Shown here piece by piece: positions 23,360 to 42,744 of a stretch of 64,000 bases of DNA (position 1 is the first letter of the stretch; each line of letters opens with the position of its first letter). The translations under genes and the position numbers were made by a program. The notes beneath the pieces were generated by a model, which was given only the letters and a program-made list of their open reading frames with translations, was not told the origin of the DNA and did not search any database. The stretch comes from Candidatus Omnitrophota bacterium (GTDB taxonomy: Bacteria > Omnitrophota > Gorgyraeia > Gygaellales > Profunditerraquicolaceae): NCBI GenBank assembly GCA_041663665.1, contig JBAYMG010000001.1:193482-257481 (forward strand), given 5' to 3'.

Positions 23360-23377
23360 GGATATTATCGATTAATA

Positions 23378-23430
23378 AATCGGGGACGCTCCTATTTAAT
23401 TAAAATAAATAGGAGCGTCCCCGATTTTCC
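23378..23430 (+). terminator. rho-independent terminator
   Basis: Perfect inverted repeat AAATCGGGGACGCTCCTATTT / AAATAGGAGCGTCCCCGATTT followed by TTTTCC. Confidence 0.75.
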
Positions 23431-29806: not shown

Positions 29807-29847
29807 TTAGGGTTAGCTGAGTTACCTTTATCCCTATTTATTTTTTC

Positions 29848-29879
29848 TTGACAGACCACACATTTGTGTGGTATATATA
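29848..29879 (+). promoter_or_regulatory. lexA promoter with palindromic operator: TTGACA -35, CCACACA-TT-TGTGTGG palindrome, TATATA -10
   Basis: TTGACA at 29848-29853; perfect 7-bp-arm palindrome at 29856-29871; TATATA immediately after; ATG at 29883, so the transcript is leaderless or near-leaderless. Confidence 0.55.
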
Positions 29880-30546: not shown

Positions 30547-31122
30547 ATGATAAATTATACACCGCCAACCAAACACACTTCATTATTTTATAATTCTCAA
30601 GAAGAATATCTGGATATTGTTGTGCCTTATCTTAAGGCAGGATTAGAAAATAATGAACTTTGTACCTGGGTTGTCCCGGAAACATTAAAAATTGAAGATG
30701 CTCAGGAGTATTTAAATAAAGTTTCAGAAAATCTGAATAGTTATCTGGAAAAGGAACAACTATTAATTAAGGGCCATCAAGATTTTTATTTAAAAGATGG
30801 CGTATTTTCTGCCTATAGAACTATAGATGCTGTTGTGGAATTAGAAAAAAAGGCTTTAAAGAAAGGATTTAAAGGAATGCGGGGTACAGGAGATTGCAGC
30901 TGGGCGTTAGATGCTTGTTGGTTTAGTTTTTTGATGTATGAAAAAGAGCTGAATAAAGTTATCGAAGAATATAAAATAAGAGCCTTATGTTCGTACTCTA
31001 TACCTGCGCTTGATTTAAAAAAGATCCGTGATATAGGAACAAGTCATCAATCGTCTTTAGTCAGGCAAACAGACAATTGGAACAGGCTTGATTCCCAGGA
31101 ATTTGAGAAAGTCAATATTTGA
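30547..31122 (+). CDS. MEDS-domain-like protein (DcmR-type sensory domain)
   Basis: HTSLFYNSQEEYLDIVVPYLKAGLENNELCTWVV matches the N-terminal H..FY..eE.l....fl..Gl..gE.c motif of MEDS as I recall it; GAGGG RBS lies before the ATG at 30547. Confidence 0.45.
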   Translation: MINYTPPTKHTSLFYNSQEEYLDIVVPYLKAGLENNELCTWVVPETLKIEDAQEYLNKVSENLNSYLEKEQLLIKGHQDFYLKDGVFSAYRTIDAVVELEKKALKKGFKGMRGTGDCSWALDACWFSFLMYEKELNKVIEEYKIRALCSYSIPALDLKKIRDIGTSHQSSLVRQTDNWNRLDSQEFEKVNI

Positions 31123-31464: not shown

Positions 31465-31545
31465 AAATCCCGGTAAGTTTGATTAAATACCTTAAGCTCT
31501 GGTCTGAAATGAAATTTCGCGTAGCGGGAGTAGAAAGAAATTACC

Positions 31546-32652
31546 ATGATTTTACATGTTGATATGGATGCTTTTTTTGCTTCGATTGAACAGGCAATTA
31601 ATCCGCGGCTTAAGGATAAGCCTTTAATCGTTGGTTCACGCGGCAATAAAATGCACACTGTAGTTTGTGCGGCCAGTTACGCTGCCAAAGCTTTGGGTAT
31701 ATATTCCGGAATGCCTTCCAGGGAAGCATTTGCCAGATGTCCAAATTTAGAGTTTGTGGAAGCTGATCAATCTAAGTATATTTGGACTTCGGAGCAGATT
31801 TTTGAGCTTTTAAAAAGCTTTAATTTTCCCCTGAATTATGCCTCAATTGATGAGTTCCAAATGGACTTAGGTGCCCATGAAAACCCGGTAAGTTTGGGTA
31901 ACGAACTTCGAAAGCAGATCTATGCAGACTTTAACATTACTGCTTCAGTAGGCATTGCCAAGAATTGGCTTTTAGCAAAACTTGCTTCTAAGCTGAATAA
32001 ACCAGATGGCTTGGCTTTGATTAATGATGAAAATTTTGAGGCAGTTTTACGGAAGACTTCATTAGATGAATTATGCGGTATGGGCGGTAAAACCGGTCAA
32101 GTTTTTATTGCTCAGGGCTTAAAAACCTGCTGGGACTTATACCTAAACTTACCGGCTTTTTTTGATAATAATCCTAGTAAGTTTGATGAAAATCCCGGTA
32201 AGTCTAGTGAATTGCCTAAGTCGGTTAGTCATTCATATACTTTGCCAAAAGTTCAAATAAACCACCAGGTTATTCAGGCCTGGATTAGGCTTTTGGCTGA
32301 GATGGTTGGTACCAGGTTGCGGCAGCAAAATTTAGTTAGCGCAACTGTGCATCTTTGGTTAAATGGCCCGGAAATCGGTAATTTTGGAGCTCAGAAAACT
32401 TACCCAAATCAGGCCACAAATGATGGTTTCGAGATCTACCAGAGAGCTTCTAAGGTAATGGCTAGATTAGCCGCTAAAAATCCCAGAATTCGGGCAATTG
32501 GGGTTACCTGCAGCAGTCTTTCTTTAAGCGTCTATCAACCCTTGTTTAGTGAAGAAATCCGCAGGGAGGGCCTTATAAAGGCTTTAGACCGTATAAATAA
32601 CCGCTTCGGAGAGGGGTCAATTTATCCCGCAATAACTTCTTTTACCCGTTAA
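31546..32652 (+). CDS. dinB: DNA polymerase IV (Y-family translesion polymerase)
   Basis: ILHVDMDAFFASIEQ catalytic motif with Asp/Glu retained; 368 aa. Confidence 0.85.
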   Translation: MILHVDMDAFFASIEQAINPRLKDKPLIVGSRGNKMHTVVCAASYAAKALGIYSGMPSREAFARCPNLEFVEADQSKYIWTSEQIFELLKSFNFPLNYASIDEFQMDLGAHENPVSLGNELRKQIYADFNITASVGIAKNWLLAKLASKLNKPDGLALINDENFEAVLRKTSLDELCGMGGKTGQVFIAQGLKTCWDLYLNLPAFFDNNPSKFDENPGKSSELPKSVSHSYTLPKVQINHQVIQAWIRLLAEMVGTRLRQQNLVSATVHLWLNGPEIGNFGAQKTYPNQATNDGFEIYQRASKVMARLAAKNPRIRAIGVTCSSLSLSVYQPLFSEEIRREGLIKALDRINNRFGEGSIYPAITSFTR

Positions 32653-32754
32653 TAGTTAACAAAATCCCCGTAAAAAAATTTTTAATTAAAGGCAAAAAAT
32701 CTAGAGAAGATGGCGCATGTATTCCGCTTAAATTGTCAGGTATAAAATAACGCG

Positions 32755-32768
32755 GTAAGTTTAAGTAA
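32755..32768 (+). repeat. left arm of the 14-bp inverted repeat GTAAGTTTAAGTAA flanking dif
   Basis: Exact reverse-complement partner at 32928-32941. Confidence 0.7.
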
Positions 32769-32856
32769 AAAAGAAACGGCTTTTCCACAGCTTAAAAACA
32801 GGCTTTAGTAAAGTGTTATCTCCCATTGGTTTATGAACACTTAGCAAATACAGACA

Positions 32857-32884
32857 AGTTAACATAATGTACATTATAGGAAGT
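32857..32884 (-). other. dif: dif-like XerC/XerD chromosome dimer resolution site
   Basis: The reverse complement ACTTCCTATAATGTACATTATGTTAACT matches B. subtilis dif ACTTCCTAGAATATATATTATGTAAACT at 24 of 28 positions. Its XerD arm TTATGTTAACT matches E. coli TTATGTTAAAT at 10 of 11. It sits exactly at the convergent strand switch. Confidence 0.75.
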
Positions 32885-32927
32885 AGACTAAAAGGGCAAA
32901 ATAGACTAAAACTGCTCATGGTGCACT

Positions 32928-32941
32928 TACTTAAACTTACT
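32928..32941 (-). repeat. right arm of the inverted repeat (TTACTTAAACTTAC on +)
   Basis: Perfect 14-nt match to the revcomp of 32755-32768; abuts the stop codon of the DUF134 gene. Confidence 0.7.
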
Positions 32942-33301
32942 TCAATTTTTACTTGGTTTTGTGTTAGTTAAATTTATAGGATTTTGTTTTACATCCTGGC
33001 GGGAACTTAGTATATATTGGCCTCCTTGAATTCTTATGGCTGATCCGGTAGTTATCCCTTTAGCGATTAAACCTCTGGCTTTTTTTAAGATTCGGCTAAA
33101 GGTTTGTTGGGATATACGCATTGAGCTGGCTGCTTCTTTTTGGCTTAAATTTAAGCAATCGGCTAGCCTCAGGGCTTCAAATTCGTCCATTCTAAGCCCT
33201 ACTTCGTCTGGCCTGCCAGGCTTGCCTCTGGGGCTAAATTGGCTTATTTTAGGGTCAACTTTGACTATTCTATATTTCTTGGGTCTTCCGCGCGCTCGCA
33301 T
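32942..33301 (-). CDS. DUF134 (UPF0251) predicted DNA-binding protein
   Basis: RGRPKK...VKVDPKISQFSPRGKPG...LRMDEFEALRLADCLNLSQKEAASSMRISQQTFSRILKKAR...AIRIQGG fits the DUF134 pattern. Confidence 0.6.
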   Translation of the reverse strand: MRARGRPKKYRIVKVDPKISQFSPRGKPGRPDEVGLRMDEFEALRLADCLNLSQKEAASSMRISQQTFSRILKKARGLIAKGITTGSAIRIQGGQYILSSRQDVKQNPINLTNTKPSKN

Positions 33302-33312
33302 TAATTTTCCTC

Positions 33313-33387
33313 AAACTTACTTAAATTTAACGCCCAGGTTAATATGAGTACATACTCATAAGTAACATTTAAAAAGTATTTTGTCAA
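33313..33387 (-). promoter_or_regulatory. DUF134 upstream region: -35 TTGACA (revcomp of 33382-33387), palindrome ATGAGTACATACTCAT (33344-33359) and a third TTAAGTAAGTTT motif copy (33313-33328)
   Basis: All elements read directly from the sequence; the palindrome has 7-bp arms. Confidence 0.4.
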
Positions 33388-34372: not shown

Positions 34373-34768
34373 TTATAGTTTATAAACTTTATCGTCTTGC
34401 CTGACCCGGGAGCTTACTTGCAAGCCTATTTCATCGCCTTTTTTGGCTTTTGAAATGTTAACTCTATCCATTTGCATGGAAGTAATTGTTTGAGTGAAAT
34501 CTGTAGTGTGGCCTTTTATTTTTAAAGTTTCTCCCATTGCTAGCGGCGCCTTTAACTTAATTACGGCGGCCTGAACATGTGGAAAATAATGTGTAACTAT
34601 ACCGATTAGCTTGCCGGCTTTTTTTAGTGTAACCTTTGTTTTGGCAAGCGGTTTATTTTTAACCGTTTTCTTGATTATTTTTTTTGCTGTTTTTTTGACA
34701 ATCTTTTTAACGGTTTTTTTTACTGTCTTTTTTTTAGTTATTTTTTTTATTTTCTTTTTTAAAGCCAT
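34373..34768 (-). CDS. histone-H1-like Lys-rich tail fused to an EF-Tu domain-2-like beta-barrel
   Basis: N-terminal KKTVKKTVKKIVKKTAKKIIKKTVK repeats; C-terminal IGIVTHYFPHVQAAVIKL...GETLKIKGHTTDFTQTITSMQMDRVNISKAKKGDEIGL resembles small translation-elongation-factor-like barrel proteins. Confidence 0.55.
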   Translation of the reverse strand: MALKKKIKKITKKKTVKKTVKKIVKKTAKKIIKKTVKNKPLAKTKVTLKKAGKLIGIVTHYFPHVQAAVIKLKAPLAMGETLKIKGHTTDFTQTITSMQMDRVNISKAKKGDEIGLQVSSRVRQDDKVYKL

Positions 34769-34779
34769 GGCGAATCTCC

Positions 34780-35106
34780 TTATAGGACTATTTTGTCCGA
34801 TATTTCGCTCACAACCGGTATACGGCTATAAACACCTAGCGCAGCCTGCATAATTCCCCAGACTGAAACTAAAAGGAATAAAACATAGCCGAAAATTCCG
34901 ATCAACCAGCCCAGGAAAGGTATGATTGATAAAATAAACGCGGTAACTTCCATAACGAAAAGCACCAGGCCTTGTCTGGCGTGGTAAAGAGCGAATTTAT
35001 TGCTTTTTTTAAGAATAAGCGTAATTATGCAGAGAAAAGAAATATAAGAAATTACTGCAAAAAATTTACCTTCGATAATTTCCTGTTCTTCGGGTGTGTG
35101 GGTCAT
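34780..35106 (-). CDS. DUF4870 membrane protein
   Basis: GKFFAVISYISFLCIITLILKKSNKFALYHARQGLVLF matches the DUF4870 core; 4-nt overlap with the ParA gene. Confidence 0.5.
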   Translation of the reverse strand: MTHTPEEQEIIEGKFFAVISYISFLCIITLILKKSNKFALYHARQGLVLFVMEVTAFILSIIPFLGWLIGIFGYVLFLLVSVWGIMQAALGVYSRIPVVSEISDKIVL

Positions 35107-36218
35107 TTATTTACCTCAAGTAGTGAATCCAGTGTTCCGTAGGTGTTTAGTTGAACTTGCGGGTTAGCCGGATCCTCGACCCAGTTTCCGTCGATAACAA
35201 ATCGGTAACGATATTTGCCGTCTTCCAGGTTTAGTTGTTTAGTCCAGCAGCCGTTAGATTGTTCCATTTTACTGCTTTCGTCAAGTTTCCAGCTGTTGAA
35301 TTCGCCTGCCAGATAAACTTCTTTGGCGTTTGGTGCTTGGATTGAAAGTTTAATCTCATTTAATTTTGGTAGGCTCTCTTGTATTTTTGGCAGATTTTCC
35401 TGGAGAATCACCTGCATGCGTTTTTCGAATATTTTTGGCAGATTAGCAGCCGGTTGAGGCGTTGTTTCCTGAGTGATAATTTCACGTGAAAGGCTGAAAT
35501 AGTCTTTTGCCCCGCGGCAGTATTTATCATAGGCAAAAACGTGCAGGCCTTCATTTTGAGCTTCCTTAAGTTTTACGTTTACATGGATAATATTTGAAAA
35601 CATTTTATTGCTATAATCGCTTTTAATTTTTTCCAGCATTTTGAATGAATGTGCTAATCGAGAATCAAAATTTGTAACTAAGACACCAAAGTCTACTTTG
35701 TGGCCTAATCTTTCGGTGATTAAATCAATAATACTGGTAAGTTGAGATAATCCTTCAAGTGAAAATCTGCTGGCTTCAACCGGAATAATGATTTCGCTTG
35801 CTGCACGGATGGCGTTAATGGTTAAGATGCCCAGGTTCGGCGGGCAGTCAATTAAGATGTAATCATAGTTAGAACCGAAATTTTTTAATATATCCCAGAG
35901 TCGGGATTCACGGCCGATCTCTCCGCTTAATTCCTGCTCAAGCGTGCTTAAGATTATTGAGGATGGTGCGATATCAAAATTTTCGCCGAAGTTTTGGATA
36001 ATATCTCCCAGGGAGCTTTTTTTATGGGCGATTTTTGATAAGACATTGTAGATACTTAGATCGGCTTTAATATTTAAGCCGCTGGTTGCGTGTGACTGCG
36101 GATCAAGGTCAATGAGTAAAACTTTACGGTTATTTGTTGCCAATGCTGCAGCTAGGTTTATCGAGGTAGTTGTTTTACCGCAGCCGCCTTTTTGGTTGGC
36201 AATTGAGATAATTCGCAT
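35103..36218 (-). CDS. ParA/MinD-family ATPase fused to a C-terminal AMPK-beta-type glycogen-binding domain (CBM48)
   Basis: Deviant Walker A KGGCGKTT. The C-terminal KEVYLAGEFNSWK...EDGKYRYRFVIDGNWVEDPANPQ...GTLDSLLEV closely parallels the AMPK beta GBD (KEVYLSGSFNNW...EGEHQYKFFVDGQW..DP). Start at the ATG at 36218, preceded by GGGAGGG. Confidence 0.8.
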   Translation of the reverse strand: MRIISIANQKGGCGKTTTSINLAAALATNNRKVLLIDLDPQSHATSGLNIKADLSIYNVLSKIAHKKSSLGDIIQNFGENFDIAPSSIILSTLEQELSGEIGRESRLWDILKNFGSNYDYILIDCPPNLGILTINAIRAASEIIIPVEASRFSLEGLSQLTSIIDLITERLGHKVDFGVLVTNFDSRLAHSFKMLEKIKSDYSNKMFSNIIHVNVKLKEAQNEGLHVFAYDKYCRGAKDYFSLSREIITQETTPQPAANLPKIFEKRMQVILQENLPKIQESLPKLNEIKLSIQAPNAKEVYLAGEFNSWKLDESSKMEQSNGCWTKQLNLEDGKYRYRFVIDGNWVEDPANPQVQLNTYGTLDSLLEVNK

Positions 36219-36281
36219 TAGCAATCCCTCCCTGCGCAAGATGCGCTTACCGGTTTTTCTTGATATAAAAACCGGCGATGA

Positions 36282-38456: not shown

Positions 38457-38487
38457 AAACCCTCGGAGGATTGCTCCTCCGAGGGTT
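38457..38487 (-). terminator. hairpin terminator downstream of the OMP gene
   Basis: AACCCTCGGAGG-attgct-CCTCCGAGGGTT perfect 12-bp stem. Confidence 0.6.
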
Positions 38488-38512
38488 TAAGTGTTGCTCT
38501 ACATAACTCTTA

Positions 38513-42671: not shown

Positions 42672-42695
42672 TGTTTTAATTTTCGTTTATTTATA

Positions 42696-42729
42696 CCCCA
42701 AGAAAAGTATTTTATACTTTTCTTGGGGT
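42696..42729 (-). terminator. hairpin terminator after ppdK
   Basis: CCCCAAGAAAAGTA-tttta-TACTTTTCTTGGGG perfect 14-bp stem in an AT-rich context. Confidence 0.55.
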
Positions 42730-42744
42730 ATAAAATCACTAAAG

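Follow-up and report, generated by a model that had tools for sequence, protein, structure and literature searches.

A DUF134 gene linked to the chromosomal dif site, with conserved flanking DNA motifs, in the uncultured phylum Omnitrophota

In the uncultured phylum Omnitrophota, a gene for a small predicted DNA-binding protein of the DUF134 family lies beside the chromosome's dimer-resolution site (dif) in about 60 of 73 species-level relatives and in a second deep clade. In the main clade it is accompanied by DNA motifs at fixed positions, an arrangement that points to an undescribed helper system acting at the replication terminus. The starting point was a preliminary description of a 14-bp perfect inverted repeat flanking a dif-like site, with a third copy bracketing a DUF134 gene, in a 64,000-nt stretch of Omnitrophota DNA (the window). 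That observation was confirmed, with small corrections. The 14-mer, GTAAGTTTAAGTAA, lies at 32755-32768 (+) as described, but its exact reverse complement is at 32927-32940 and not, as had been given, at 32928-32941; the arms are 158 bp apart, and they lie 88 bp (copy 1) and 42 bp (copy 2) from dif. The third copy is imperfect, consisting of two overlapping 12/14 matches at 33307-33320 and 33317-33330, and it shares an exact 11-mer with copy 2 in a shifted register. The regions of copies 2 and 3 form a 22-nt direct repeat at 86% identity (32927-48 and 33307-28), spaced 380 bp and bracketing DUF134. The features of the locus are collected in Table 1.

Table 1. Features of the DUF134–dif locus in window coordinates. 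L-numbers designate individual loci of the comparison; positions with a plus sign are counted from the start of dif.
Position	Strand	Feature	Observations
31470..31489	+	Motif copy CCGGTAAGTTTGATTAAATA, just upstream of the dinB start	Position weight matrix (PWM) score 23.4; homologous copies at +1311..+1460 in relatives
31885..31904	+	Motif copy CCGGTAAGTTTGGGTAACGA inside dinB, encoding PVSLGNE	Present in about 27 relatives at about +957; synonymous-constraint patch 31879-31896
32136..32155	-	Motif copy CCGGTAAGTTTAGGTATAAG inside dinB, the only copy pointing away from dif	About 37 relatives at about +705; constraint patch 32140-32157; can pair with the 32195 copy in an RNA hairpin
32174..32214	+	Two tandem motif copies in the dinB linker, AGTAAGTTTGATGAAAAT and CCGGTAAGTCTAGTGAATTG, encoding PSKFDEN-PGKSSE	Among the strongest synonymous-constraint patches of dinB (32173-90 and 32194-211)
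32734..32856	.	Conserved non-coding block on the XerD-arm side of dif	Aligns without gaps; mean pairwise identity 0.60, against 0.36 on the other flank
32752..32771	+	Copy 1, the conserved 20-mer GCGGTAAGTTTAAGTAAAAA, a tandem GTAAG-N5-GTAAA pointing toward dif	Exactly at +113..+132, 88 bp beyond the XerD arm, in 57 of 61 GTDB relatives and 62 metagenome loci
32781..32790	+	TTTTCCACAG, a DnaA-box-like motif (TTWTNCACA), reading CCTGTGGAAAAG on the other strand	Conserved at about +94 in both Omnitrophota clades, with variants TGTGGATAA, TGTGAATAA and TGTGTATAA; 4 matches in the window against 1.36 expected
32857..32884	-	dif site, ACTTCCTATAATGTACATTATGTTAACT; XerD arm 32857-32867, central hexamer TGTACA 32868-32873, XerC arm 32874-32884	The same 28-mer, with central hexamer TATATC, lies downstream of DUF134 in about 60 relatives
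32924..32943	-	Copy 2, GAAGTAAGTTTAAGTAAGTG, abutting the DUF134 stop codon and pointing toward dif	PWM score 22.4; absent at this position in all 73 GTDB relatives; analogous copies between the DUF134 stop and dif in metagenome loci L084, L127 and L181
32942..33301	-	DUF134 (PF02001) gene, 119 aa	Predicted sigma-70-region-4-like HTH and a disordered basic N-terminus with two RGRP motifs (Pfam, alignment, AF2 model, Foldseek)
33307..33333	-	Copy 3, a tandem GTAAG-type repeat in the DUF134 5'UTR, overlapping the ribosome-binding site (GAGGA)	Conserved in relatives as GGTAAR-N4/5-RGTAA immediately 5' of the ATG
33344..33359	.	Perfect palindrome ATGAGTACATACTCAT, the probable operator at the DUF134 promoter	Unique in the window; conserved as ATGAGTAnnTACTCAT in both Omnitrophota clades
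33359..33387	-	Putative sigma-70 promoter of DUF134; -35 TTGACA at 33382-33387, 17-nt spacer, TG-extended -10 TACTTA at 33359-33364	Read from the sequence; TTGACA-N17-TAATTA conserved in relatives; not listed by a consensus promoter scanner

To establish whether the repeats exceed chance, the window was searched for related sequences. The 14-mer with up to 2 mismatches gave 9 hits against 1.01 expected, a number reached in 0 of 100 shuffles, and seven of the 9 hits lie in 31473-33330; the two others are at chance level. The 8-mer GTAAGTTT occurs 13 times in 64 kb, with 8 occurrences within 1.85 kb around dif. Perfect inverted repeats of 14 bp or more with a gap of 300 bp or less are expected 0.29 times per 64 kb in first-order Markov simulations, and the other three in the window are tight hairpins.

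The dif site fits the consensus for chromosomal XerCD recombination sites, with two 11-bp arms of partial dyad symmetry around a 6-bp centre. On the - strand it reads ACTTCCTATAA-TGTACA-TTATGTTAACT, matches the B. subtilis dif at 24 of 28 positions, and has arms near-identical to those in more than 110 relatives. Its location is that of a terminus. All ORFs above 110 aa left of 32.65 kb are on the + strand and all those right of 32.94 kb on the - strand, and the change points of AT skew and GC skew are at 32,910 and 30,980, respectively; the same gene convergence is seen in the second clade. The site is also used by recombinases, as integrated mobile elements have created hybrid sites in L027, L004, L045 and L051, where the XerC arm and centre are joined to a foreign arm, followed in L027 by an excisionase-like gene and phage-like genes. 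Within the window, tblastn with approximate E. coli XerD and FtsK motor query sequences gave no hit, and neither xer nor ftsK was among the 25 most frequent families in a Pfam annotation of 60 window ORFs.

The DUF134 assignment was supported by a Pfam match of 85.2 bits (E = 4.9e-24) against a cut-off of 27, covering profile positions 1-96 of 98; the only other Pfam hit was a weak one to Xre-like-HTH, and the NCBIfam PRK04217 match was below its cut-off. The best Foldseek matches of the AF2 model were ECF sigma region 4 and the DeoR DNA-binding domain, and no relative of solved structure was found by sequence. The basic N-terminus and its two RGRP motifs are invariant, and the recognition helix (ISQQTFSR) is identical in both Omnitrophota clades. 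Searches of the literature on DUF134/UPF0251 returned only three passing mentions, and nothing combined Omnitrophota and dif.

The preliminary description had proposed comparing related genomes to ask whether DUF134 is always adjacent to dif and whether the repeats are conserved, and about 190 related loci were compared for this purpose. In about 60 of 73 GTDB loci, dif lies downstream of the DUF134 stop, mostly within about 130 bp and in the same orientation; most exceptions are contig ends or insertions. All 5 loci of the second clade, at 45% identity, show the same linkage with entirely different neighbouring genes. The linkage is specific to this subfamily, given that three Firmicutes-type DUF134 genes sit in Nitro_FeMo-Co/CbiA operons with no dif nearby, and plasmid homologues are distant (below 45% identity) and neighbour NifB/NifX-family genes. 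Copy 1 is ancient. Its 20-mer, GCGGTAAGTTTAAGTAAAGA, holds its position in more than 110 distinct Omnitrophota sequences, and in the 62 metagenome loci dif follows the 17-mer at the same spacing, give or take 1 bp. In this metagenome scan, which had no control scan, 46 of the 123 hits to the 17-mer lie in unrelated recurrent coding contexts that could not be assigned to a taxon. L048 and L058 keep the 5'UTR tandem but lack the +113 site. Copy 3 is also conserved, but copy 2 is lineage-specific, so the perfect inverted repeat itself is partly a lineage accident. In the second clade the GTAAG tandem is lacking, and the 5'UTR instead carries CCTGTGGATAA; inspection by eye for repeats shared between the 5'UTR and the dif flank of that clade revealed only CCTGTGGATAA / CCTGTTGATAAG.

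The 125-bp block beyond the XerD arm showed no sign of being structured RNA or coding sequence. RNAalifold on 53 ungapped sequences gave SCI of about 0 on both strands, and there was no Rfam hit at the gathering threshold or at E up to 1. No frame is open in more than 3 of 113 sequences, and the 52-aa ORF at 32761-32919 is window-specific. Conservation within the spacer showed no clean 10.5-bp periodicity. Outside the block, four of the six strongest synonymous-constraint patches of dinB are motif copies, in three different frames or orientations, indicating selection at the DNA level. No copy lies more than 1.8 kb from dif in 61 loci of up to 12 kb each or in the window. Seven of the eight copies in the window point toward dif, and in GTDB relatives all DUF134-side copies are '+' and all dinB-side copies are '-' except the one at +705; L109, however, has DUF134-side copies in the opposite orientation. 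The possibility that the palindrome (ATGAGTATATACTCAT) at the DUF134 promoter is the SOS box was rejected because it is unique in the window and the lexA promoter carries a different palindrome, CCACACAtttGTGTGG.

The favored, though still tentative, interpretation (probability about 0.45) is that the 14-mer is the core of a roughly 20-bp asymmetric site, SCGGTAAGTYTRRGTAAA, composed of two GTAAR half-sites one helical turn apart and belonging to a dif-anchored module conserved across Candidatus Omnitrophota. In the main clade the module runs from a sigma-70 promoter with the palindromic operator ATGAGTAnnTACTCAT, through a GTAAG tandem next to the start codon, the DUF134 gene and dif (XerC arm first), to an 88-bp spacer of fixed length containing CCTGTGGAWAAG and an inverted GTAAG tandem. 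DUF134 is proposed to be a DNA-binding protein dedicated to the dif locus that would repress itself at the palindrome. Together with the GTAAG sites, read by DUF134 or a partner, it would build a nucleoprotein complex of fixed geometry on the XerD side of dif and at its own 5' end, and that complex would control Xer recombination at the terminus, following the logic of plasmid cer/psi accessory sequences, phage recombination directionality factors, or XafT. The extra copies in dinB and between DUF134 and dif would raise local occupancy. The existence of the elements, their linkage, their exact spacing and the action of selection on the DNA are established by the sequence comparisons, but the binding of any protein to any of these sites, and any effect on Xer recombination, are inferred from sequence alone. 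A resemblance between half-sites fits this view, as TAAGTA differs by one base from the operator half-site TGAGTA, and one subclade has GTAAGTACTCAT at the operator position. Other observations fit it less well. The invariant recognition helix contrasts with a tandem missing from the second clade, so the HTH may read only the palindrome and the 14-mer may belong to another factor. Known Xer accessory sequences (cer, psi) lie on the XerC side, whereas the block is on the XerD side; an accessory complex does not need copies up to 1.4 kb away in dinB, three of which could instead be explained by an mRNA hairpin; and prophage insertion can separate DUF134 from the block by at least 6 kb.

The interpretation given in the preliminary description was partly supported by these data. 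Its first reading, that the repeats are binding sites for a terminus-specific organizer or Xer regulator, possibly DUF134 itself, is favored by the linkage of DUF134 to dif, the conservation of copies 1 and 3, and the absence of the motif away from the dif neighborhood within the window and all fetched loci. It is weakened because reading of the 14-mer by DUF134 remains conjectural, the identical recognition helix fitting the equally invariant palindrome better than the clade-specific 14-mer, and because the suggested analogy with MatP/matS is poor. The second reading, that DUF134 is small cargo brought next to dif by an Xer-exploiting element, is not supported and is largely refuted; on this reading the direct repeats around the gene would be insertion scars. 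The 22-nt direct repeat brackets the gene and dif regions of relatives do host mobile elements, but DUF134 is a fixed resident on the XerC-arm side, at the same place and orientation in two deep clades. There is a single dif site with no second dif-like site, real mobile elements insert between DUF134 and the XerD arm, copy 2 is missing in all GTDB relatives, and the region has no DNA match in phages.

The main rival, considered unlikely, is a compact replication fork trap in which DUF134 would be a third, independently evolved terminator protein functionally like Tus or RTP, the GTAAG tandems would be polar Ter-like barriers of opposite orientation bracketing dif, and the copies in dinB would be back-ups. 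The architecture mirrors the "ancestral" two-Ter Tus trap, where TerB/Ter1 lies just upstream of the tus ATG, Tus autoregulates, the second Ter has opposite polarity, and dif and the skew flip lie between them (PMC8707476). Here a site abuts the DUF134 ATG and an inverted site lies beyond dif, most copies point toward dif, copies are under DNA-level selection, and copies between the DUF134 stop and dif have arisen repeatedly (the window, L084, L127, L181). Fork traps are known to have evolved convergently (PMC10331603). However, the predicted fold is neither Tus nor the winged-helix RTP, a barrier needs no base-exact 88-bp spacing, the second clade keeps DUF134–dif without GTAAG tandems, and L109 is reversed. 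Also unlikely is that a factor other than DUF134 reads the sites, for example a roadblock shielding dif from convergent transcription of dinB and DUF134, or arm-type binding by the Xer recombinase, with DUF134 regulating only itself at the palindrome. No intrinsic terminator lies between either gene and dif, the helix matches the palindrome rather than the tandem, and sites on both sides of a tyrosine-recombinase core at fixed distance recall the arm-type sites of lambda attP. This view does not explain why DUF134 in particular stays with dif through complete turnover of neighbors or why a tandem sits at its ATG, and no candidate protein was identified, with no xer gene found in the window.

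A KOPS-like role, in which the copies would steer FtsK or another translocase onto the XerD side of dif, is more doubtful still. Copies on both sides point toward dif and are tolerated inside coding DNA under DNA-level selection, and the block lies on the XerD side, where FtsK activates XerD (general background in PMC9226527). But KOPS are short, G-rich 8-mers skewed genome-wide, and this roughly 20-bp site has no good copy in the other 62 kb of the window; moreover, L109 is reversed and the DUF134 linkage is not explained. Action at the RNA level, by pairing of complementary copies within dinB or DUF134 transcripts or of 3' read-through RNA with the DUF134 ribosome-binding site, is improbable. 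The dinB copies at 32143-61 and 32189-207 fold into a stable hairpin (z = -2.55) and the lack of terminators makes read-through across dif plausible, yet no conserved structure or Rfam hit was found in the dif flank, most copies have no nearby partner, and copy 2 is not conserved.

Several characterized systems resemble the locus in part. The Tus–Ter type I trap of Enterobacterales and RTP–Ter of Bacillus subtilis share a small DNA-binding protein gene in the terminus with a cognate-looking asymmetric site immediately upstream of its ATG, a second site of opposite polarity across dif, and additional same-polarity copies on one side (PMC8707476; PMC10331603), but the predicted fold here is unrelated, the opposed orientation is reversed in L109, the second clade lacks the sites, this array spans about 2 kb instead of kilobases to hundreds of kilobases, and its spacing to dif is base-exact. 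The plasmid cer/psi accessory sequences, which act with PepA/ArgR/ArcA, share a conserved block of about 125-180 bp adjoining the core site, with fixed geometry relative to the core; here the site is chromosomal, the block is on the XerD side instead of the XerC side, and the candidate binder is a DUF134 protein encoded in cis. XafT (DUF3653), the Xer activation factor of TLCphi, is a small protein that acts with XerD at a dif-type site independently of, or alongside, FtsK (PMC6744903; PMC9226527), but it is phage-encoded and of a different Pfam family, while DUF134 is a fixed chromosomal resident whose interaction with XerD would be hypothetical. In the XerS/difSL and XerH/difH single-recombinase systems a dedicated gene is also linked to the dif site across species, although there it is the recombinase itself. 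In MatP/matS (and ZapT) systems a sequence-specific protein marks the terminus region, but matS is a 13-bp palindrome, GTGACRNYGTCAC, with about 23 copies spread over about 800 kb, and matP is not dif-linked, whereas the sites here are direct repeats confined to about 2 kb around dif.

dif sites are normally described as lying in non-coding DNA with varying flanking genes (PMC9765430). They are normally controlled in trans by FtsK. Fork traps are known only from the Tus and RTP lineages (PMC10331603). Here, a gene for a predicted DNA-binding protein stays linked to dif through complete turnover of neighboring genes and comes with a 125-bp flank of invariant length and motif copies selected even inside a neighboring coding sequence, which together suggest that an uncultured, widespread phylum solved terminus control differently. 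It is possible, although less likely than not, that Omnitrophota carry a previously unrecognized chromosomal system dedicated to dif, in which a specialized DUF134 subfamily encoded in cis would bind arrays of GTAAG-type sites at base-exact distance from the XerD arm and would either activate or gate XerCD recombination or form a minimal fork trap centered on dif. This would be the first assigned function for any DUF134 protein, and either a third independent invention of a terminus-specific terminator or organizer or the first chromosomal Xer accessory factor. The locus offers defined DNA sites for binding and recombination assays and a concrete, testable function for a domain family matched by 2,837 cluster representatives at E up to 0.001.

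In the window the 14-bp sequence GTAAGTTTAAGTAA (copy 1) is followed by its exact reverse complement (copy 2), and a 28-bp dif site lies between the two; coordinates of these and other features are collected in the table below. All ORFs above 110 aa to the left of 32.65 kb are on the + strand and all those to the right of 32.94 kb are on the - strand. GC skew drops from about +0.2 to about 0 around this point, and change-point analysis placed the AT-skew switch at 32,910 and the GC-skew switch at 30,980. The site therefore sits at a replication-terminus-like convergence point. The neighbors on the left are lexA, a MEDS-domain gene, a 102-aa ORF, and dinB, and those on the right are DUF134 (PF02001, E = 4.9e-24), an epimerase gene, and a parA-like gene with a carbohydrate-binding domain. 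The last of these encodes a ParA/MinD-type ATPase fused to a glycogen-binding AMPK1_CBM/CBM48 domain; nearby is a 131-aa protein with a very lysine-rich, histone-H1-like N-terminus, and both are conserved next to DUF134 in the main clade. The window is 100% identical to part of a 162-kb metagenome contig.

Features of the dif region and of related loci, with positions in the window unless a locus is named (L numbers designate loci from relatives and metagenomes)
Feature	Position	Strand	Place in relatives	Sequence or remark
Copy 1	32755-32768	+		GTAAGTTTAAGTAA
Copy 2	32927-32940			exact reverse complement of copy 1
dif site	32857-32884	-		ACTTCCTATAA-TGTACA-TTATGTTAACT, read on the - strand
Central hexamer of dif	32868-32873			TGTACA
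DnaA-box-like element	32781-32790; L076:3960-3975		about +94 from dif	TTWTNCACAG
Motif copy inside dinB	32195-32214		about +647	
Motif copy inside dinB	32174-32193		about +667	
Motif copy inside dinB	32136-32155		about +705	
Motif copy inside dinB	31885-31904		about +957	
Motif copy at the dinB start	31470-31489		about +1311 to +1460	
Constraint patch inside dinB, not a GTAAG copy	32254-32271			CAAATAAACCACCAGGTT
Constraint patch inside dinB, not a GTAAG copy	31921-31938			
Possible mRNA hairpin in the dinB linker	32143-32207			MFE -26.5 kcal/mol, z = -2.55
Palindrome in the lexA promoter	29845-29866			CCACACAtttGTGTGG
Perfect hairpin-type inverted repeats	23377-23427, 38457-38488, 42690-42734			arms of 14-22 nt, loops of 3-7 nt, intergenic
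ParA/MinD-type ATPase with AMPK1_CBM/CBM48 domain, and 131-aa lysine-rich protein	35103-36239 and 34373-34768			
Hybrid dif sites right after DUF134	L027:2000-8018, L004:1361-2794, L045:6312-6943, L051:6339-6548			XerC arm and center joined to a foreign arm
Insertions between DUF134 and dif	L026:3230-4404, L067:6340-7276, L052:2380-3063, L030:6330-6681			0.3-1.1 kb
Contig ends at the locus	L002 end (= window 32753); L017, L056, and L059 ends			

The preliminary description had reported a 14-bp perfect inverted repeat around dif, with a third copy on the far side of DUF134, and this observation was confirmed, except that copy 2 lies one base to the left of the position originally assigned and the "third copy" consists of two overlapping 12/14 matches. 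With copy 2, the third copy forms a 22-nt direct repeat at 86% identity around DUF134. To assess whether the pattern exceeds chance, the 14-mer was searched with up to 2 mismatches, giving 9 hits against 1.01 expected; none of 100 shuffles reached 9, and seven of the hits lie between 31473 and 33330. The 8-mer GTAAGTTT occurs 13 times in the window, with 8 occurrences within 1.85 kb around dif. Perfect inverted repeats of 14 bp or more with a gap of 300 bp or less are expected 0.29 times per 64 kb, and the three others in the window are tight hairpins.

A scan of one genome per species (GTDB) with the DUF134 protein returned 73 loci at 45-89% amino-acid identity, all but three labeled Candidatus Omnitrophota/Omnitrophica or "uncultured Planctomycetales" MAGs. 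In about 60 of them, a dif site (consensus ACTTCCTATAATATATCTTATGTTAACT) lies downstream of the DUF134 stop in the same orientation, in most within about 130 bp; most exceptions are contigs that end at the gene or loci with an insertion. Assemblies tend to break here: a Logan contig ends 2 nt before copy 1, the contigs of loci L056 and L059 end at dif, that of L017 ends just after its +113 site, and 13 of the 73 GTDB contigs end less than 700 bp 3' of DUF134. This may reflect strain-level variation or integrated elements at dif. Most of the loci share the synteny GH57–ParA–…–DUF134–dif–dinB–lexA, but about a dozen have a different gene beyond dif and still keep DUF134–dif. A second, more divergent Omnitrophota clade was reached through the 45%-identical homologue. 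Its neighbors are entirely different (PAC2, DUF748, and Polysacc_synt on one side; HypA, 4HBT, and M50 on the other), yet DUF134 is again at a gene-convergence point, with dif about 150-210 bp downstream. In one locus, L078, the distance is 515 bp, with an extra HTH gene (an HTH_3 ORF) in between. By contrast, three Firmicutes-type DUF134 genes sit inside Nitro_FeMo-Co/CbiA-Fer4/DUF5320 operons with no dif-like site nearby, and plasmid homologues neighbor NifB/NifX-family genes. The dif linkage is therefore a property of an Omnitrophota subfamily, whose recognition helix reads ISQQTFSR rather than VSRPTFHR.

The three copies have different histories. Copy 1 is ancient: the 20-mer GCGGTAAGTTTAAGTAAAGA sits at exactly +113 to +132 from the dif start, 88 bp beyond the XerD arm, in 57 of 61 GTDB loci, and a metagenome scan for the 17-mer gave at least 123 matches, of which at least 62 have dif at +87 to +89. 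The whole 125-bp stretch beyond the XerD arm aligns without a single gap, with a mean pairwise identity of 0.60 against 0.36 on the DUF134 side. It includes CCTGTGGAWAAG, which on the other strand fits the DnaA-box consensus TTWTNCACA and is kept at the same distance in the second clade, where a perfect TGTGGATAA also sits in the DUF134 5'UTR. The block is neither RNA nor coding: it showed no conserved RNA structure (SCI about 0 on both strands), no conserved ORF, and no Rfam match. Copy 3 is conserved in the main clade as a tandem GGTAAR-N4/5-RGTAA directly 5' of the DUF134 ATG, and upstream of it come GGCGTTAAA, an invariant palindrome ATGAGTAnnTACTCAT, and a TTGACA-N17-TAATTA promoter. The palindrome is a separate element; it is unique in the window and is also present in the second clade. 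It differs from the palindrome that lies between the TTGACA and TATATA elements of the lexA promoter, which is a candidate SOS box of this lineage. Copy 2 is a lineage feature and is absent at that position from all 73 GTDB relatives, although similar copies between the DUF134 stop and dif occur in the metagenome loci L084, L127 (two in tandem), and L181; locus L109 has them in the opposite orientation.

A position weight matrix built from the +113 sites revealed additional CCGGTAAGTTTRRGTAAAGA-type copies, beyond those in the preliminary description, at four conserved places inside dinB and at the dinB start. No copy lies more than 1.8 kb from dif in 61 loci of up to 12 kb or in the 64-kb window. 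In a codon alignment of 34 dinB orthologues, four of the six strongest patches of synonymous-site constraint coincide with these copies, and the motif is embedded in three different frames or orientations, encoding PVSLGKE, PGKFDE/PGKSSE, and, in reverse, LYLNLP. The constraint is therefore on the DNA, or possibly the RNA, not on the protein. Two further patches of strong constraint are not GTAAG copies, and the first of them resembles the reverse complement of the conserved TAACCTGGGCGTT element of the DUF134 5'UTR. On the dinB side, all copies except the +705 one point toward dif, and on the DUF134 side all GTDB copies also point toward dif. The inverted copies in the dinB linker can fold into a stable mRNA hairpin, and the tandem copies encode a repeated PGK(F/S)(D/S)E peptide in what appears to be an insertion-tolerant linker.

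The DUF134 protein is 119 aa in length. Its AlphaFold model has a confident core over residues 33-91, with three helices forming a sigma-70-region-4-like HTH plus a short hairpin, whereas the N-terminus is disordered but invariant and basic, with two RGRP motifs. The best Foldseek matches are ECF sigma region 4 and the DeoR DNA-binding domain; neither Tus nor RTP appeared among the matches, and no solved structure matched by sequence. No functional literature on DUF134/UPF0251 was found.

The loci of relatives also indicate, from sequence, that dif is a working Xer site. In L027, L004, L045, and L051, the XerC arm and central region directly after DUF134 are joined to a foreign arm, the signature of an element integrated at dif. 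In L027, the junction is followed by an excisionase-like 83-aa HTH gene and phage-like structural genes, so this looks like a prophage or other mobile element. In L026, L067, and L052, an insertion carrying genes for a LAGLIDADG-like protein (FDGDGSV motif) and a small Xre-like HTH protein lies between DUF134 and dif, whereas L030 has only the HTH gene; the extra ORF of L078 is similar. The XerC arm is replaced (AGTGGA, AGTGCC, or AGGGAG), and no second dif-like site is present. DUF134 always stays on the XerC side and the conserved block on the XerD side, so the proposal that DUF134 is itself the cargo of a mobile element is not supported.

Collectively, the comparisons directly establish a conserved dif-anchored module with base-exact spacing, selection on the motif copies at the level of the DNA (or possibly the RNA), restriction of the motif to the dif neighborhood in the sequences examined, and linkage to a gene for an HTH protein with a promoter-proximal palindrome; which protein reads the 14-mer, and what the complex does, are inferred. 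The interpretation in the preliminary description, that the repeats may be binding sites for DUF134 acting as a terminus-specific organizer or Xer regulator or, alternatively, that DUF134 is cargo, is partly supported. The tentatively favored reading (probability roughly 0.45) is a nucleoprotein complex dedicated to dif that involves DUF134 and acts on Xer recombination. Base-exact spacing to the XerD arm is what a stereospecific recombination complex needs and is not what a simple barrier needs, and DUF134 is the only gene that never leaves dif. Against DUF134 being the reader of the 14-mer, its recognition helix is identical in the second clade, which lacks the tandem; in its favor, TAAGTA differs by one base from the operator half-site TGAGTA, and one subclade has GTAAGTACTCAT at the operator position.

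The main rival, considered unlikely, is a compact fork trap. Its layout strikingly resembles the two-Ter "ancestral" Tus trap, with TerB 11 bp upstream of the tus ATG and dif between the opposed sites (PMC8707476), and fork traps are thought to have arisen convergently (PMC10331603). Still less likely are recognition by another factor or a transcriptional roadblock, given that no terminators are present, KOPS-like orienting sites, and RNA pairing, given the dinB hairpin; the cargo reading also ranks among these lower possibilities. dif is usually described as lying among varying flanking genes (PMC9765430), and known Xer helpers are FtsK, the plasmid accessory proteins, and phage XafT (PMC9226527, PMC6744903). 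No description was found of a conserved chromosomal dif module with a cis-encoded HTH protein and fixed flanking sites. Because its function is inferred from sequence alone, the module is regarded as a dif/Xer locus that differs in these features rather than as something categorically new.

The central hexamer of dif is palindromic in the window, but in almost all relatives it is TATATC; a palindromic overlap region would remove the directionality of strand exchange. The three perfect hairpin-type inverted repeats elsewhere in the window are probably transcription terminators.
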